In this document: in pieces, positions 6,263 through 64,000 of the stretch
Layout: every line of letters begins with the position of its first letter
How positions within the stretch are numbered: the first letter of the stretch is position 1
Source of the DNA: Candidatus Doriopsillibacter californiensis
GTDB taxonomy: Bacteria; Pseudomonadota; Gammaproteobacteria; Tethybacterales; Persebacteraceae
Length of the DNA stretch: 64,000 nucleotides
Direction: 5' to 3'
NCBI GenBank assembly: GCA_030386295.1
Contig: JANQAO010000002.1
Coordinates: forward strand, 186,868-250,867
Made by a program: the position numbers and the translations under genes
Notes under the pieces: model-generated
Databases searched by the model: none
What the model saw: only the letters and a program-made list of their open reading frames with translations
Told to the model about the DNA's origin: nothing

Positions 6263-6415
6263 ACGTAAAATGATAATCCTGTTTTTTACGGGCTACCGTC
6301 AACAACTGCCACATTCAAAATTCGCATTATTATTGAATTTCGTTATAATTGTTGCCACTGGTGCACTCCAAGTGCTTCGGTTATTTTTTTCTATATTGTA
6401 TAAAAAGGAGAGTTA

Positions 6416-7531
6416 ATGAACACCACAACCAAAAAAATTGTTGCCAGCTTTGCCGCTACCGCCCTGATTGCGGGCAATGCGTTGGCAGCAAAAGACATTG
6501 AATTGACCATCGTGTCATGGGGTGGCGCTTACACTGATAGCCAACAAAACGCCTATCACGCCCCCTACATGAAAGCTAACCCGCATGTTTCCATCATTAA
6601 CGATGACTCTTCCAATGAAGCGGTTCCCAAATTGCGAGCACAAAATGAAGCCGGCAATATTAATTGGGATTTGGTGGACATGGTACCTGCTGATGCAATT
6701 CGCGCCTGCGATGAAGGTATTGTCATAGAAATCGACTTCGACAAAGTGTTGGCTCCGGCACCCGATGGCACCTCGCCAACTCAAGACTTTGGCGCCTCAC
6801 TGGTATCACCCTGTTTTATACCGCAAATCGTTTATTCCACCACTTTTGGTTACCGCTCTGACGTGGCGGAATGGGGCGGCAAAAAACCAACCTCCATAAA
6901 AGATGTATTTGACACCAAAAATTTCCCAGGCAAACGTTCTTTGGAAAAGCGGCCGGTCAACAATATGGAGTGGGCACTCATCGCCGATGGCGTATCGCCA
7001 GATCAAGTGTATGATGCACTTTCCACGCCCGAAGGCGTTGACCGTGCGTTTGCCAAACTGGACACTATTAAAGATGACATTATTTGGTGGAGTTCGGGCG
7101 CAGATACCCCAGATCGTTTAGCTAAAAAAGAAGTAGTTATGGGCTCTACCTACAATGGTCGTCTGTTTGCTCTGATTGAAGAACAAAAGCAGCCAGTGGA
7201 AATGATGTGGGATTGGCAGATTTTTGAGTTGGACGGCTGGGTCATACCCGCCGGCTTGCCAAAAGATCGCCTGCAAGCAGTGTTGGATTATTTGTATTAT
7301 GCTACTGACACCCAACGGCTAGCCGATCAATCAAAATACATTTCTTACGGACCGGCTCGCCAATCTTCCGCACCACTAGTTGGAAAACACGCTACGCTAG
7401 ACATTGATATGGCACCACACATGCCAACCGATCCAAACAATGCCAAAAACACGCTCTACAACAACATAGAGTGGTGGGCGGACAATCGTGATGAATTAGA
7501 CCAGCGTTTTCAAGCTTGGTTAGATCAGTAA
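6416..7531 (+). CDS. ABC transporter periplasmic substrate-binding protein (PotD/PotF-like family 1 SBP)
   Basis: Signal peptide MNTTTKKIVASFAATALIAGNALA followed by an SBP-like body. GGAG lies upstream of the ATG, and two ABC permeases follow. Confidence 0.75.
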   Translation: MNTTTKKIVASFAATALIAGNALAAKDIELTIVSWGGAYTDSQQNAYHAPYMKANPHVSIINDDSSNEAVPKLRAQNEAGNINWDLVDMVPADAIRACDEGIVIEIDFDKVLAPAPDGTSPTQDFGASLVSPCFIPQIVYSTTFGYRSDVAEWGGKKPTSIKDVFDTKNFPGKRSLEKRPVNNMEWALIADGVSPDQVYDALSTPEGVDRAFAKLDTIKDDIIWWSSGADTPDRLAKKEVVMGSTYNGRLFALIEEQKQPVEMMWDWQIFELDGWVIPAGLPKDRLQAVLDYLYYATDTQRLADQSKYISYGPARQSSAPLVGKHATLDIDMAPHMPTDPNNAKNTLYNNIEWWADNRDELDQRFQAWLDQ

Positions 7532-56991: not shown

Positions 56992-57116
56992 TTTTAGATG
57001 GGCGGGAGGATTACCTTCCCGCTTACTGTTGGTAGCAATTAAGTAGCGTTGGCAATCTAATAAGCCGACGCCACATCTCATGTTAGACGATTACTTGGGT
57101 AGTAACGACATTAGTA

Positions 57117-58742
57117 ATCTACGATAGCAGAAATTATATGTGCCTATTAGACGACAAAAGAAAAATCACTTCCAAAAAAGATCTACGATAGTAGAAATTA
57201 TATGTGCCTATTAGACAACCATGAGACCAGTCGGTAACCGCGTATCTACGATAGTAGAAATTATATGTGCCTATTAGACCCGGTGTAAAAATCAACGGTC
57301 AGAGAAATCTACGATAGTAGAAATTATATGTGCCTATTAGACACGTATAAACCTAATAAGTAGCATCACAATCTACGATAGTAGAAATTATATGTGCCTA
57401 TTAGACAACAGCGCAAGAAGCCGAAAATTCATAAATCTACGATAGTAGAAATTATATGTGCCTATTAGACCCTCACGAACGGATATAAACCCATCGTAAT
57501 ATCTACGATAGTAGAAATTATATGTGCCTATTAGACATAATAGGCGAAGACGGGTTAACCGAAATCTACGATAGTAGAAATTATATGTGCCTATTAGACG
57601 GGCATAACAGTATTACGTAATCCTTATTATCTACGATAGTAGAAATTATATGTGCCTATTAGACATTCGCGTGCCTAATGTTATCGCACCTATCTACGAT
57701 AGTAGAAATTATATGTGCCTATTAGACTAGCCGGCAGAATATAATCAGAAACAATCTACGATAGTAGAAATTATATGTGCCTATTAGACTCGGACAGTAA
57801 TAAATCATCACGCGCGATCTACGATAGTAGAAATTATATGTGCCTATTAGACGCGGAAGCAAAGCGGCTGGCTATATGGCATCTACGATAGTAGAAATTA
57901 TATGTGCCTATTAGACACAGCGCAAGACGCTGAAAACTCATAACAATCTACGATAGTAGAAATTATATGTGCCTATTAGACTGCCAAGAATATTAACTAC
58001 GCTCACTATCTACGATAGTAGAAATTATATGTGCCTATTAGACTTTTAAATAGCCATACTTACTAAGGAGGATCTACGATAGTAGAAATTATATGTGCCT
58101 ATTAGACATTAATTAATTGCATCTCGGAGGGAGGATCTACGATAGTAGAAATTATATGTGCCTATTAGACCATCAATCTCAACAATTAATTCACTCAATC
58201 TACGATAGTAGAAATTATATGTGCCTATTAGACTGGGGATGACCCTCATGCAGATTTAATATCTACGATAGTAGAAATTATATGTGCCTATTAGACGATT
58301 TTAATACCCGGAATGCCATGAAATCTACGATAGTAGAAATTATATGTGCCTATTAGACGAGACTAACCGGGTGGAACGGCATAGCCGATCTACGATAGTA
58401 GAAATTATATGTGCCTATTAGACCTCTGGTCATTTATTCATGTGGTCGGAATCTACGATAGTAGAAATTATATGTGCCTATTAGACAAAAGAAAAATTAC
58501 TCGTAGAAGTTAAATCTACGATAGTAGAAATTATATGTGCCTATTAGACGTCAAGAAAAGACAATAAAAGGTTATAATCTACGATAGTAGAAATTATATG
58601 TGCCTATTAGACACATATAAAACCTGTCAAGCCGAAGGGTGTATCTACGATAGTAGAAATTATATGTGCCTATTAGACGTAAAAATGAAAAGGAAGTAAA
58701 AATGAAATCTACGATAGTAGAAATTATATGTGCCTATTAGAC
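57117..58742 (-). CRISPR. Type V-A CRISPR array: 26 repeats of 36 bp, 25 spacers of 26-30 nt
   Basis: In the transcribed sense the repeat is GTCTAATAGGCACATATAATTTCTACTATCGTAGAT. Its 3' part, AAUUUCUAC-UAUC-GUAGAU, is the Cas12a crRNA handle. Repeats start at 57117, 57181, 57244 ... 58707. Only the distal repeat (57117) carries a substitution. Confidence 0.97.
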
Positions 58743-58748
58743 AGCTAT

Positions 58749-58777
58749 TTAATAAAAACATCGCCTTTCGCATTCAA
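58749..58777 (-). promoter_or_regulatory. Candidate sigma70 promoter in the CRISPR leader
   Basis: On the minus strand, TTGAAT-17 nt-TATTAA ends 6 nt before the first repeat. The leader (58743-58895) is AT-rich and also contains the palindrome GTTTGCAAAC (58859-58868). Confidence 0.35.
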
Positions 58778-58895
58778 CGAACGCGATTTTTTACTTTTTA
58801 TCGCTGTTTTTAATGAACAGTAAGCTTTTTCTCGGAAGATTTTTTCATTAAGACCAAGGTTTGCAAACGCTTTTTCTAGCACGATTCAGATTCTA

Positions 58896-59168
58896 TCATA
58901 AGACAATTAAATCCGTATCGTCATTTAGTGCATAACCATAATGGGTAATTTTGCATTGTTTGCTCATACTAAAAATCATGATGCTATCGCGCTGAGAAAA
59001 TCTTTTTTCAAATCGTCCCTTGATTTCCGACTCTATAATTGCCAAAACTCGCGCGCTATTTCTTATCTCAAAAATAGAATATTGCAACCGATAACCAAAT
59101 TTACTTAAATATTTAGAAAACTCAGTACGTAGTTTCGTATCGCTAATGTCATAAGAAACAATCAGCAT
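58896..59168 (-). CDS. cas2: CRISPR-associated endoribonuclease Cas2
   Basis: 90 aa, MLIVSYDIS...YSIFE ferredoxin-like Cas2 pattern. It overlaps cas1 by 7 nt. Confidence 0.95.
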   Translation of the reverse strand: MLIVSYDISDTKLRTEFSKYLSKFGYRLQYSIFEIRNSARVLAIIESEIKGRFEKRFSQRDSIMIFSMSKQCKITHYGYALNDDTDLIVL

Positions 59169-60154
59169 TTTTCATTCAAAAATTTATTAAATAACGGATA
59201 TTCGTCAACTGGTTTCTGTCGCATAAAGCAACGATAATACTGTTGAGTGTACAAAAACATGCCCTGCTTGTGTGTCAAAATTTCCTCTAGCAACCATTTC
59301 AAATAGCTACGCGATTTTTCTCCAAACAAACGATATTGCCCCTGTATCACATCAAAATCTTCTACATTAACCTGCCCCAAACTAAAAGCCTTGCGGATAC
59401 GGCTGTCAATAATAGGACGAAAAGGCTCCACCAAATCACAAACTAACGACTTGCGCTGATAAAACTGCTGATGATACACACCCCTATACAGGTCAAAGCC
59501 ATACAGATTAAGTAAGCCTTCCACAAAATTAAATAGCAGCGTATAGCCGATATCTAGTAACGTGTTGGTCGGATCTTGCTTAGCTCGAGGTTTTCTGCCG
59601 TGCCAACTCTCTCGTCCAAATAGTTGTTGAAAATAAACCCGCGCAGCACTACCTTCTAATCCTAATAAATTTTGTAAATCCAAATCAGGAGAAGGAAGTC
59701 GCGCTTCATGATTTTGCAGGTGTTGAATTGCTATCCGTTTTTTTTCATCTTTATTGCGAATATTTTTTAACACTTCTCGCTGTTGCTGAATTTTGTTCAT
59801 AACTAAGTGTTGGGCAAGATCAGTGTTTTCATAGTCATATTGTCTTTTCCGAAGTACTACATTACCCTCAGTTTTATTATTAAATTGACCATACACTGTC
59901 AGGTTGTGTCCCATCAATATCAGGCTAAAACCAAATTTTTTCGCACGCTGCAACAATCCCGAAGTAACAACAACATGACCAACAATAAACAAAGCAAAAA
60001 GTCGGTAACAGGTAGACTGATGTTTAATGTTTTCATCTTCACCTCTGATAATAATATTGTCATTTTTAAAACTCAGCTTGTCCCCCCGACTTAGCAATGC
60101 CAGCACAATTTGTTTTTGTTTAAAATCTGGCGCGCTAAGCATGGTCTCAATCAA
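59162..60154 (-). CDS. cas1: CRISPR-associated integrase Cas1
   Basis: 330 aa with conserved Cas1 C-terminal domain motifs (DPTNTLLDIGYTLL, SLVCDLVEPFRPIID). Confidence 0.95.
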   Translation of the reverse strand: MIETMLSAPDFKQKQIVLALLSRGDKLSFKNDNIIIRGEDENIKHQSTCYRLFALFIVGHVVVTSGLLQRAKKFGFSLILMGHNLTVYGQFNNKTEGNVVLRKRQYDYENTDLAQHLVMNKIQQQREVLKNIRNKDEKKRIAIQHLQNHEARLPSPDLDLQNLLGLEGSAARVYFQQLFGRESWHGRKPRAKQDPTNTLLDIGYTLLFNFVEGLLNLYGFDLYRGVYHQQFYQRKSLVCDLVEPFRPIIDSRIRKAFSLGQVNVEDFDVIQGQYRLFGEKSRSYLKWLLEEILTHKQGMFLYTQQYYRCFMRQKPVDEYPLFNKFLNEKC

Positions 60155-60157
60155 CCC

Positions 60158-60718
60158 TCAATCGGCCAGCGAGTAATCACACAATGCCCGGTAGACACAC
60201 TGCCGACATTTATTAACGTTGGCAACAAACGGTGCATTTAGTTCAAAATCCCGCATTTGTTGAATAAGTACCTCAAAGTCCCGCAATTTGTCTGGAGCGT
60301 CTTGTGGTAGCGGCACAAAGTAGCTTTTGTTGTCGTCCATGCTGTAGAGTTTGATTTTTTGCACCGGATAACCCATTTCAGTCAAACAAAAATATTGAGC
60401 ATATAGTTGAAAAACATAGCCGTTATATAGCATTTTTATTTTCTTTTTACGCTCGGTTAGCAACCGCTTATTTTGGTCATAAGTATCCACCTTGCCGCAT
60501 AGCCCATAAGTATCGCTGTACACCTCCACTCCCTGCATTACCGCTTTGGCGGTAGTATATGTTTTGTTGTCTATAGTTCGGTGTGCGTTCAATCCTGCCG
60601 TTTGATGAGTCGTATGATAAAAACGTTTTGACATTTTGCCGTAAAGCTGATGAAAATAAATAGAGCGCGGGCAAAAAAGAAAATCATTCAGAAAAGATAT
60701 TTGTATATACGATTCCAT
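60158..60718 (-). CDS. cas4: CRISPR-associated exonuclease Cas4
   Basis: N-terminal Cys (FLFCPR), RecB-like GKVD...ERK, QLYAQY, and the C-terminal CRQCVYRALC Fe-S cysteines. Confidence 0.9.
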   Translation of the reverse strand: MESYIQISFLNDFLFCPRSIYFHQLYGKMSKRFYHTTHQTAGLNAHRTIDNKTYTTAKAVMQGVEVYSDTYGLCGKVDTYDQNKRLLTERKKKIKMLYNGYVFQLYAQYFCLTEMGYPVQKIKLYSMDDNKSYFVPLPQDAPDKLRDFEVLIQQMRDFELNAPFVANVNKCRQCVYRALCDYSLAD

Positions 60719-60763
60719 TGTGTTCCTAATAATATAGATTAACTCGGTTTTTATTCATGTTTA

Positions 60764-63700
60764 CTAAACAGTTAATATTTTTTCGTTATCTAAATCGGGA
60801 GATTTTTCTTGCACAAATTGATACCATTCTTTGTTGGTAATGTTTAATCTCTCTTCTCCTTTGTTAATTTGCTCTAACGCCCATAACCCTTTTAGTGCAA
60901 TGTGATACGCTCCGTTAGCATCAGCATTTTGCGGGACATCGCCACCCACATCGCGAGAGTCAAAGAAATTTCCATTCGCATCCGGTATCGGCGAAATCAT
61001 CCAATCCTCATCTGAATTAATACGGCTATTACGAAGTTGTAAAGTTAACCTGAGCAATCGAATAAGTTCTTTGAAAAAACCTGTGTCATTTTGATTTTCA
61101 ATATCGCTTTTAATATCTTCTTTATTTTCATAGTCAATAACCGTGTTTTTAAATAATTCTTTGAATTTTTCGGTTAAATTAATTTCTCTTGTGTCCCATT
61201 TATCATTTTTAGAGGTTCTAAAATTCTCAAGCCGCTTACCATAGGAACAAATTGTCCATTTTTGTTTACTGTCTTCAGCCTTATCCGTAAATTTTTTATA
61301 ATCCAAATGAAATTCAAAATATTGTTTTTCAGTATTAAATTTTATCAAATCAAATTTGTTAAAAAATTCTTGTGCCTTCTTAACAGTTTCATAATGAGGA
61401 TATAGTAAGTTCACAAACCCTGTCACTGGGCAAATTTTGGACGTGTGGTAGGCAGAGACATAAAAAACAACTCCAGTTTGCTTGCCCATTTTTTGAAAAC
61501 TTTTAAATGGTGCTGTCAGCTGCAATGCTTTTAGCACTCCGCCAGCATGGCTTGGTTCTTTCTCTTTTAGCACTAAATAATTAAGTTTGTCTATCAACAT
61601 TTTTTCCAGTTTTTGATAGATTTGTTTTTCTACCTTAAAGCGGCCTTTTTTGAAACCAAAATTTAAATCTTCAAGTACTACAATAGCGTTGTGTTCTACT
61701 ATCATCCGACAAATTTTGTGCACGACTTGCGACAAATAACCCTCTTTCAAGTCCTTAATCCGTTCAATACTTCCCCAAGACTTTCTAGATTTATCTCGCT
61801 CAACTTCTCTTTTATTCAAAAGATAATGATAGTCTTTTGAATAAATTTTTCCTTTATTATCACTTTCTATTACATTAAAACTGCCCTGCAAATACTTACC
61901 ATTCACATCTTGAAGTATTTCCCTTTTTTGGTTAATCAGCGTGTAATAAGCTAAGTGACGCTCTCCTCTATCTATCCCCAAAATATTGACGGTTGGATTA
62001 TCTTTTAGAAATGCATTAATTTTGTCATTAAAGTGAGGTGCTCCTAAAGCTTTAAAATTACACCCAATGGATACATGAAACAAGTATCTGTCTTTGGCAT
62101 AACGTTTGTCTTTGATAATAGGAAGGCGCTTGCCATTCTTGTCAAACTTTCCTTTCAATTCTTCGTAGTGATGCCCCTGTTCCCAAATTTTTTCATCATA
62201 CTTAATAGATGCTTTCCTAAAAAATAGTTCTGCTTTTCCATTAAGTTTATAAACCACATTTTTTAAATTTTCAGGGGTAAATAAATTTCTCCAATACAAG
62301 GTTTGTAAACTAGGTTTTCCTTTTGCATGTGGCGAAAAGTCTTTGCTATAAATCTCAAACAAATATAATTCCCCTTCTTCCACACATTGATCTATATAGC
62401 TCACCGAAATATCTTGAAAAGATATTTTGTAACCCTGATGCTCTACCTCTTTATAAAACCCACTTAAGTCGTTATACTGACTTGTGTCTGAAAACTTAAA
62501 TCCAAAACCTCTCCATTCTGGACGAGAATTAATTGATTCTTTAAAAAAATCAATTATATTTCTCATATCTTTTACATCAAATTCCTCTTTTTCATAACCT
62601 TTTTGAGGAGTGCCTTTTTGGGTATGAGTGGCATGGTTCCTAATTCTCAAAATCTCATCAGACGGATTATAATAATTTATATTTTCTTTACTGAAAAATA
62701 CCTTCGGTAACATTTTGCTTGCCCCAGGAAGAAGTTTATATTCCATTTTTTGGTAATTATCAGATGTGTTTTTTAGCGCTTCCAAAGATTTTGCTTGTTT
62801 CTTTATGTTTTTTTCCATATTTTCTAATTTATTCTTCAAATCATCATAAGCTTTTGTGCCTTCTTTTTTGTTTAATAAGATTGCCTTATGTTCTTCAATT
62901 TTTTTTATGTTTTCCGCCATACTATCTTCAATTGATTTTGGACTTAAATTATCACTTTCAAATAATTTTGCTGTTCGTCTATCCATAACACCCAAAAAAT
63001 ATTTTTCGCCTTTGCGTAAAAGCACACAAGTATTATCAGTTTCTTTATTTTTATCCCATCCATCTGCTAACGTGATATTTTCAAAATTTAACTTATATTT
63101 TTCTATGTTGTACGGCTTTTTTGTAAGATAGTTACGTGTTTGATTATAAAGTGGCGTAATCTGTTCTAGCACTTCATACAAACGATCAAAATCCCCATAA
63201 AAAGCACTATCTTTATCTAGCACATCAGCATGTTCTTTTTCTTTCTGCTTGACTTTTTTGCGGTGTGGTTGTTTTTCCGTTAGCACATCAGCATGTTCTT
63301 TTTCTTTCTGCTTGACAAATAACGGTTTTAAAAACTGCTGTAAATCTTGCACTGCATCTAAATATACTTTGATTTTAGATACCTCTTTTTTATTATTTTT
63401 TAACGTTTCTGTTTTTTCGCCTTTATATTGTTTTAACACATTAAAAGCGGGTGGCGCTAATTTTATAATTTCATCAAGCAATTCTTTCTCTTCAAAAACA
63501 TCGGTTTCTTCATTCTTTTTTCTAAACATTAAATTTTCAAAATAGCGAAAAAGCGGTTCGCTCATTGCTTTTTTTTTCATTTCTATAGTAACACCTTCAT
63601 CCTTATTATCTACAAGATCTTCGTCTTTATATTGCTCAAAATCTTTTTTTAATGCTTTATGAATAGTATCAAATGAAAAATAAGTGCTCTTAAGCCATGA

Positions 63701-64000
63701 TTCTCTTGCTTGCTCAGTAAATCGCTTAGACTCACCTTTTTTATTTTTCCCCAGTAATCTATTTTCTGCATAATTTTCTAAGCTTCGTTTTATGACATCC
63801 CAGTCACCAAATAAAAACTGAGAAATGTTAGCAAGCTCTTTGCCGTTTTTGATATAAATACTTTGAGCATCTGCTTCTGATATGCTTTCAAGGATCTCTC
63901 TTAACTGCTTAGTAATATTAAAATCTTCAGTGTTTTTATTTCCTTTCTCATCTTCAATTTCTTCTCTGCCAATTAACTCATCCTTTTCATTTAATTGGAA
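60764..64000 (-). CDS. cas12a: Cas12a (Cpf1) type V-A effector, 5' end beyond the window (at least 1078 aa present)
   Basis: RuvC I GIDRGERHLAYY, RuvC II VVLEDLNFGFK, RuvC III DADANGAYHIALKG, Nuc SKICPVTGF, and LLPGASKMLPKVFF. It is extensively collinear with FnCas12a. My hand translation shows the frame stays open from 63581 to 64000, so the listed 938-aa ORF is not the full gene. Confidence 0.95.
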   Translation of the reverse strand, partial: FQLNEKDELIGREEIEDEKGNKNTEDFNITKQLREILESISEADAQSIYIKNGKELANISQFLFGDWDVIKRSLENYAENRLLGKNKKGESKRFTEQARESWLKSTYFSFDTIHKALKKDFEQYKDEDLVDNKDEGVTIEMKKKAMSEPLFRYFENLMFRKKNEETDVFEEKELLDEIIKLAPPAFNVLKQYKGEKTETLKNNKKEVSKIKVYLDAVQDLQQFLKPLFVKQKEKEHADVLTEKQPHRKKVKQKEKEHADVLDKDSAFYGDFDRLYEVLEQITPLYNQTRNYLTKKPYNIEKYKLNFENITLADGWDKNKETDNTCVLLRKGEKYFLGVMDRRTAKLFESDNLSPKSIEDSMAENIKKIEEHKAILLNKKEGTKAYDDLKNKLENMEKNIKKQAKSLEALKNTSDNYQKMEYKLLPGASKMLPKVFFSKENINYYNPSDEILRIRNHATHTQKGTPQKGYEKEEFDVKDMRNIIDFFKESINSRPEWRGFGFKFSDTSQYNDLSGFYKEVEHQGYKISFQDISVSYIDQCVEEGELYLFEIYSKDFSPHAKGKPSLQTLYWRNLFTPENLKNVVYKLNGKAELFFRKASIKYDEKIWEQGHHYEELKGKFDKNGKRLPIIKDKRYAKDRYLFHVSIGCNFKALGAPHFNDKINAFLKDNPTVNILGIDRGERHLAYYTLINQKREILQDVNGKYLQGSFNVIESDNKGKIYSKDYHYLLNKREVERDKSRKSWGSIERIKDLKEGYLSQVVHKICRMIVEHNAIVVLEDLNFGFKKGRFKVEKQIYQKLEKMLIDKLNYLVLKEKEPSHAGGVLKALQLTAPFKSFQKMGKQTGVVFYVSAYHTSKICPVTGFVNLLYPHYETVKKAQEFFNKFDLIKFNTEKQYFEFHLDYKKFTDKAEDSKQKWTICSYGKRLENFRTSKNDKWDTREINLTEKFKELFKNTVIDYENKEDIKSDIENQNDTGFFKELIRLLRLTLQLRNSRINSDEDWMISPIPDANGNFFDSRDVGGDVPQNADANGAYHIALKGLWALEQINKGEERLNITNKEWYQFVQEKSPDLDNEKILTV
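63218..63316. repeat. 36-bp direct repeat with 63-bp period inside cas12a (in-frame 21-aa duplication)
   Basis: TAGCACATCAGCATGTTCTTTTTCTTTCTGCTTGAC occurs at 63218-63253 and 63281-63316. It encodes KQKEKEHADVL twice. Confidence 0.9.

Follow-up and report, generated by a model that had tools for sequence, protein, structure and literature searches.

Francisella novicida Cpf1 (FnCas12a; PDB 5NFV, 5MGA, 6I1K and 6I1L) belongs to the same family and has the same architecture as the protein analysed here, the Cas12a of the mollusc-associated bacterium Candidatus Doriopsillibacter californiensis. The latter is encoded in the last part of a 64,000-nucleotide stretch of contig JANQAO010000002.1 (assembly GCA_030386295.1), hereafter called the window. 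The two proteins are 48-50% identical over their aligned part and have the same type of PAM-interacting (PI) domain, the same lysine loop for the protospacer-adjacent motif (PAM), the same CRISPR RNA (crRNA) handle and the same locus order. In contrast, two conserved motifs that flank a surface loop of the WED-II region are 81 residues apart in the window protein and 25 residues apart in FnCas12a, which is also devoid of a 21-residue duplication found in the REC2 domain of the window protein.

A two-helix module in the WED domain has been described in AsCas12a. This bundle is present or absent among orthologs, is not needed to cleave DNA and works by steric means (PMC6711708); swapping it swaps sensitivity to AcrVA4 (Knott et al. 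2019, eLife, PMC6711708). Its authors argued that it is ancestral and was subsequently lost (PMC6711708). The additional residues of the window protein are also predicted to form a two-helix module of WED, but the resemblance is limited to this general form. The AsCas12a bundle is located in WED-III, above the pre-crRNA nuclease, whereas the arm of the window protein (residues 681-747) belongs to WED-II and precedes the PI domain. The two have no sequence relation, and the window arm, unlike the AsCas12a bundle, looks gained. In the WED-III of the window protein, the length of which is Fn-like, there are just two helices, each of only 4-6 residues, and no As-type bundle.

Structure of the WED-II insertion

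The full cas12a open reading frame (ORF; L001:265-4497:-) is on the minus strand and codes for a protein of 1,410 residues (P0002). The window contains the gene from its 3' end up to the window limit; a further 996 nt, including the first 332 codons, lie outside. We refer to the 1,078 window-encoded residues as P0001. In the region of the insertion (62756-62944), the plus-strand frame is full of stops, and the minus strand codes for residues 685-747 of Cas12a.

As YKLLPG starts at residue 753, 81 residues separate it from YFLGVM, the conserved motif upstream of the insertion. Anchor searches in the PDB, with that left anchor and two kinds of right anchor, showed that the same interval comprises 25 residues in FnCas12a and in the reconstructed ReChb, 24 in LbCas12a and Lb2Cas12a, 23 in MbCas12a, 26 in AsCas12a and 22 in AmCas12a. 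The net insertion thus amounts to approximately 56 residues. An initial annotation of this DNA had proposed an insertion of about 50 residues and a distance of about 75 residues between the two motifs; the spacing of about 24-26 residues that it gave for Fn-, Lb- and AsCas12a is that of the PDB entries. In phmmer comparisons with PDB sequences, both flanks aligned, and ~60 residues of the query that faced just 4 residues in FnCas12a and in ReChb did not.

The insertion is real and is not an assembly artefact. The identical Cas12a protein is recorded from six contigs, and three other mollusc-metagenome runs have contigs that span the arm without differences. In four runs, no contig joins across the arm in the way that an arm-less allele would, although contigs drop rare variants.

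We predicted the structure of the window-encoded residues using AlphaFold2 (AF2) with a 92-row alignment (mean predicted local distance difference test score, pLDDT, of 88.7; predicted template modelling score of 0.82). The model aligns with FnCas12a (6i1l_A) over 903 residues, with a Z score of 45.4 and a root mean square deviation of 6.8. In this model, the insertion folds into an arm of two antiparallel helices (23 and 29 residues), with pLDDT values of 93-95 over most of the hairpin. It stands in place of a short surface loop of WED-II, directly ahead of the strand through which the chain reaches the PAM lysine loop. The hydrophobic residues of the second helix recur at regular spacings of three to four positions (Y717, L720, L724, M727, I731, A735, L738 and L741), and the arm is therefore an antiparallel coiled-coil hairpin. 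The AF2 model of a second carrier, the Cas12a of a Gammaproteobacteria metagenome-assembled genome (MAG) that we call L006p, has the same two long helices (pLDDT 96-98) in an arm just 21% identical to that of the window protein. The predictions thus show the ~56 extra residues to be a real, autonomously folding antiparallel two-helix arm, whose helix lengths would correspond to some 35-40 Å. The initial annotation had described a long helical or coiled-coil hairpin at the boundary between WED-II and PI; the models bear out the hairpin, and the Pfam PI domain starts at residue 757. That the hairpin adjoins the PAM lysine loop, as also proposed, holds along the sequence only.

A search of the ESM Atlas for look-alikes of the arm alone yielded best scores of 0.82-0.84, within the range of chance. 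Prediction of a dimer from two copies of residues 600-860 gave a score of 0.00, below the mark, which we count neither for nor against dimerisation.

A fragment of nearly the same protein, P0126 (733 residues), is encoded by a JGI contig of 3,782 nt. It matches residues 1-715 of the window Cas12a with 99% identity, diverges right after the tip of the arm (...KKEGTK) and ends 18 residues further on. A simple frameshift does not explain this sequence, and the contig may be chimeric or rearranged.

Distribution and origin of the arm

We scored the interval between the two motifs in 230 family representatives from two database searches. Approximately 205 of them (~89%) have 22-33 residues, with a mode of 24; 16 (~7%) have 44-53 residues, corresponding to a mid-size insert of ~20 residues; and 10 (~4%) have 74-101 residues. 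Among the best 80 genome loci, with one genome per species scanned, 66 are short, five mid-size and two long. Given the counts in both samples, the WED-II site is a hot spot for insertions, of which the long form is rare (~3-4%). The arm is thus rare, not unique. None of the characterised or solved Cas12a proteins has it; the finding that the initial annotation had said would refute it, the same insert in many characterised orthologs, was not made. In a full-text literature search of incomplete coverage, we found no paper that describes an arm in the WED-II of Cas12a. We regard it as an undescribed variation of an ordinary Cas12a, common to a small uncharacterised clade. More generally, the WED-II loop ahead of the PAM lysine loop tolerates inserts of 20-75 residues in many lineages, which makes it a candidate site for domain insertion in engineered Cas12a proteins, such as inlaid editors or sensors.

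Searching 5.8 billion proteins with residues 676-745 alone returned nothing at E ≤ 0.01. This reflects a limit of sensitivity, since homologous arms were found once the flanks were included. Over residues 655-772, HMMER matched the window protein to P0009 with an E value of 4.5e-17. We then compared the window arm with other inserts using Smith-Waterman scores relative to 500 composition-preserving shuffles. The z score was 14 for P0211, ~7 for P0014, P0015, P0019 and P0080, 5.9 for P0009 and 2.9 for P0208. In contrast, lysine/glutamate-rich helical controls gave 1.2 for the long insert of P0016 and ~0 for the mid-size inserts. Similarly, the L006p arm yielded z scores of 9.9 with P0211 and 8.0 with P0009. 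These scores indicate that the window arm is homologous to that of one distant Cas12a clade, which we call the long-arm clade (P0009, P0211, P0208 and P0014/15/19/80), composed of metagenomic or MAG proteins of 1,400-1,534 residues.

The carriers harbour their arms at the same position and with similar lengths, i.e. 72-77 residues between the YxLGxM and Y.K..YK anchors (76 in the window protein by that count). Pairwise identities among these arms are low (21-36%; the window arm is 36% identical to that of P0211), and the stems are variable. The only motif conserved among carriers is that of the tip, KK[E/P]G[T/S]K.Y, midway between the anchors (NKKEGTKAY in the window protein, including K715 and Y717).

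The distribution of the arm does not follow that of the backbones. With the arm left out, the window protein shares 63-65% identity with P0005 and similar short-loop proteins, and only ~30-47% with the other carriers. Along the protein, sliding identity confined the foreign similarity to residues 681-745, and the remainder resembles its near relatives. We built unrooted FastTree and IQ-TREE trees without the insert columns. P0009, P0211, P0208, P0229 and P0015/19/80 form one clade (support 100) in a part of the tree where mid-size inserts prevail. The window protein and L006p are on separate branches of a 14-row clade (support 100), whose other 12 rows are short-loop proteins. L006p (MAG OZ241847.1; 1,422 residues) has a backbone of the Fn-like subclade, 47% identical to the window protein, but it differs by its PI type, and its nearest relative, P0007, has a short loop. 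Approximately unbiased (AU) tests rejected trees in which all carriers form one clade (p 1.4e-83) or in which the window protein and L006p are sisters (p 0.0024). Thus, the arm of the window protein belongs with the long-arm clade and the protein does not.

Because the homology of the arms conflicts with the backbone tree and with the AU tests, we interpret the arm as a cassette moved by recombination between cas12a genes. It is probably foreign to this lineage, that is, a homologue of the distant clade's arm copied into a Francisella-like backbone, and the L006 Gammaproteobacteria MAG would have gained one separately. In this scenario the arm, which appears native to the long-arm clade, would have been copied at least twice into Fn-like backbones. 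The main alternative is that the arm is ancestral and was inherited vertically, with independent losses in the short-loop relatives, or that the arms are convergent. The trees, being unrooted, leave room for it, and the identities between arms do not exceed those between the backbones and the long-arm clade, with no sign of recent transfer. We nevertheless consider it unlikely. Vertical descent requires at least five separate losses in a single 14-row clade, each restoring the family-typical loop of 24-25 residues, and it sits badly with the arms of the window protein and L006p each being closer to those of the distant clade than to each other, as well as with the rejected monophyly of the carriers. 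Convergence is at odds with a z score of 14 where other lysine/glutamate-rich helical inserts score ~0-1. Some features temper the transfer scenario. We had already seen the first tree when we named the groups for the AU tests, and the model was LG+G4. In addition, the low identities between arms imply that the transfers are old or that their donors are unsampled, and their direction and number are inferred. The conflict between the arm and backbone trees and the occurrence of the arm with three PI types add to the evidence that cas12a genes evolve as mosaics of exchangeable blocks.

Two further observations concern the insertion site. The 8-mer TGATAATT (minus-strand reading) is found at both junctions of the arm (62947-62954 and 62755-62762), 192 nt or 64 codons apart, and codes for Ser-Asp-Asn at each arm end; there are only seven copies of it in the window. 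The pair may be a microhomology left by the gain or loss of a cassette or permitting it, or it may be due to chance, for which we estimate a probability of a few per cent. Furthermore, P0016 and L074:1484-5641 (Bacteroidetes SZAS-28) harbour a second kind of long lysine/glutamate-rich helical insert at the same WED-II site. These inserts of 86-93 residues are carried by As-like-PI backbones of another clade and are not detectably homologous to the window arm.

Core machinery and possible roles of the arm

We analysed the conserved features of Cas12a in the window protein. Pfam identified the REC1, REC2 (cas_Cpf1_2nd), PI (Cpf1_PI-like), RuvC and NUC domains above cut-off, with E values of 5e-91 for RuvC_1 and 5e-53 for NUC. 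The protein thus has the REC1-REC2 lobe, the WED domain and the PI domain with its PAM lysine loop that characterise the family. The RuvC motifs IDRGE, LEDLN and DANGAY supply the acidic D/E/D triad, and their columns are invariant in the 92-row alignment. LLPGASKMLPKVFF aligns with residues 661-674 of FnCas12a, and the LLPGxxKMLPKVFF motif is conserved throughout. In the alignment, K651, K761 and K765 are the conserved counterparts of K613, K667 and K671, the PAM-reading lysines of FnCas12a. As the RuvC motifs, the PAM lysines, the crRNA handle, the cas4, cas1 and cas2 genes and the spacers are all intact (see below), we expect an ordinary enzyme with a T-rich PAM. It is very probable that the core machinery is untouched and that the arm is an accessory module. 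The identity of the protein as a Cas12a is not affected, and the arm represents accessory variation on a well-known enzyme.

The role that we favour for the arm, tentatively and by analogy, is that of a steric shield. On the WED face, next to the PAM cleft and the region of the crRNA handle, it would form a stiff, charged bumper exposed to the solvent and would restrict the access of inhibitors such as anti-CRISPR (Acr) proteins or of other proteins. The AsCas12a bundle does this against AcrVA4. AcrVA1 and AcrVA5 act at the PAM-binding surface of WED and PI (PMC7556299). The net charge of the window arm, +1, and its variable stems with balanced lysines and glutamates fit a bumper better than a DNA-binding element. 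The site itself also fits, as the long arms that arose there are of at least two kinds without homology to each other (KKEG and P0016/L074), and a mid-size insert arose there as well. Several points weigh against a shield. The AsCas12a bundle lies at another site, by the pre-crRNA nuclease, which makes the analogy functional only. To our knowledge, no Acr has been reported for this bacterium or for phages that infect it. Inheritance of the insert is stable in the long-arm clade, as it is in that half of the tree where mid-size inserts occur, and therefore a structural or DNA-handling role fits as well as an arms race. The complete explanation, combining the predicted fold, the foreign origin, the intact core and the steric role, is one to which we give slightly less than even chances. 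A bolder version, which we regard as unlikely, is that the WED-II arm is a transferable counter-defence cassette, i.e. a stiff two-helix shield that moves between cas12a genes by recombination and guards the face of the PAM cleft and crRNA handle from AcrVA1-, AcrVA4- or AcrVA5-like proteins or from other Acrs. If so, Cas12a would have a second anti-anti-CRISPR module of independent evolutionary origin, and no other such module would have been shown before to pass horizontally between members of the gene family.

The main rival to the shield, which we find doubtful, is an arm that contacts DNA. The hairpin would lie along the PAM-proximal duplex, with its lysine-rich tip (K710, K711, K715 and Y717) on the backbone upstream of the PAM, and would stabilize PAM binding or bending, thereby changing the kinetics of target search and not the identity of the PAM. 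The basic tip is the sole conserved part of such divergent arms, and along the chain K651 is followed by the WED-II hairpin, then by the arm and then by the strand that runs towards the PAM lysine loop. The charge of the arms gives conflicting indications: it is +3 to +6 in several carriers but just +1 here and -2 in P0208, with lysine/glutamate-balanced stems. Moreover, the tip motif might have a structural explanation, with lysines at the C-terminus of a helix, a glycine turn, a threonine or serine N-cap and a tyrosine in a hydrophobic staple. If the arm has either of these two roles, its transplantation or removal could be used to tune Acr sensitivity or target-search kinetics, as was done with the AsCas12a bundle. 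A neutral decoration, also improbable in our view, would make the WED-II loop a permissive surface site at which lysine/glutamate-rich helical segments are gained and exchanged without consequence. The variety of inserts at the site (short, mid-size and at least two unrelated long ones), the poor conservation of the stems and the fact that the closest relatives work with a 24-residue loop all agree with this. Nevertheless, the length of the arm and its tip motif have been kept across backbones that are just ~30-47% identical, and the arm is confidently folded in the models of two carriers, which points to purifying selection.

Exposed antiparallel coiled coils are common protein-protein interfaces, and the initial annotation had suggested a partner-binding surface. 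The arm might then recruit another protein, such as those of Cas4-Cas1-Cas2 adaptation or a host factor, or it might hold two copies of Cas12a together. We consider this very unlikely, as no additional conserved gene goes with the arm. In the window, the locus is a plain cas12a-cas4-cas1-cas2-array, whereas at the L006 locus a gene of the histone deacetylase family is found upstream and an unassigned 224-residue ORF (6280-6954) lies between cas12a and cas4; variable stems do not favour a conserved interface either. The least probable reading, to which we give hardly any credence, is that the arm re-specifies the PAM, as the initial annotation had proposed from its proximity to the lysine loop in the sequence. 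The counterparts of the three FnCas12a lysines and the motif that carries two of them are conserved, and homologous arms are found with PI domains of the Fn-like, As-like (P0211) and YKQ.AD (L006p) types, which makes a changed PAM unlikely. The tip of the helices, presumably ~35 Å from their base, would also be an unlikely base reader. We thus retain the steric shield as the favoured, if tentative, role.

The type V-A locus

The features of the window discussed in this work are listed in Table 1. The locus (56992-64000 and beyond) is a complete type V-A system, with the gene order typical of Cas12a. The 36-nt repeats, in 26 copies, contain the 5'-handle stem-loop (AAUUUCUACU...GUAGAU) of Cas12a, a family that needs no tracrRNA; they end in ...AATTTCTACTATCGTAGAT, with one change in the trailer repeat.

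Table 1. Positions of the features in the window
Feature	Position	Strand	Basis
cas12a, 3' part, 3,237 nt, residues 333-1410 and stop	60764..64000	-	ORF, translation, Pfam, AF2 model
YFLGVM, residues 666-671, second strand of the WED-II beta-hairpin, left anchor	62984..63001	-	AF2 strand at P0001 333-339
81-residue interval between anchors, residues 672-752	62741..62983	-	Anchor positions
Arm proper, residues 681-747	62756..62956	-	Sliding identity; homology to P0211 (z 14), P0015 group (z 7) and P0009 (z 6)
Arm helix 1, residues 686-708	62873..62941	-	AF2 DSSP helix, P0001 354-376; pLDDT ~81 at start, 94-95 from P0001 361
Arm tip/turn NKKEGT, residues 709-714	62855..62872	-	AF2, carrier alignment
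Arm helix 2, residues 715-743	62768..62854	-	AF2 helix, P0001 383-411; pLDDT 93-95
YKLLPGASKMLPKVFF, residues 753-768, strand and lysine helix-loop opening the PI domain	62693..62740	-	Alignment, Pfam; K761/K765 = Fn K667/K671
cas4	60158..60718	-	Pfam Cas_Cas4
cas1	59162..60154	-	Pfam Cas_Cas1
cas2	58896..59168	-	Pfam CRISPR_Cas2
CRISPR array, 26 repeats of 36 nt, 25 spacers of 26-30 nt	57117..58742	-	

We searched for targets of the spacers that would give the PAM and found no protospacer. Comparison of the whole array with a phage collection gave just chance-level 36-nt matches to Clostridium phages, and no protospacers were found in the organism's own genome. Two spacer patterns had no match in IMG/VR; one of them was degenerate and matched both the 21st and the 13th spacer from the leader (57407-57434 and 57917-57945). 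These two spacers are diverged copies of one target, with differences at three positions, as if variants of a single mobile element had been sampled repeatedly.

The type V-A island looks horizontally acquired. No Cas12a was found with this query in 40 related genomes, including one of the same genus and nine of the same family. The locus stretch is present in many mollusc-metagenome runs, none of which is listed as RNA. Upstream, it is flanked by a ferrochelatase-like core gene on the opposite strand, and the closest named Cas12a is that of 'Candidatus Haliotispira prima' (51%).

Repeats were also observed in the cas12a genes themselves. In that of L006, an 18-nt unit is repeated 7.8 times with 95% matches (L006:4938-5078), giving a tandem repeat of six residues in the C-terminal half of the protein. 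In the window gene, an exact direct repeat of 36 nt (63218-63253 and 63281-63316), with a period of 63 nt, corresponds to an in-frame tandem duplication of 21 residues in REC2 (residues ~561-594), in which KQKEKEHADVL occurs twice (low AF2 confidence, pLDDT ~55). In runs X16 and X17, short contigs span both copies. A contig of run X18, with another organism label and seven mismatches, skips exactly 63 nt (from 63217 to 63281), and a related strain therefore lacks the REC2 duplication.

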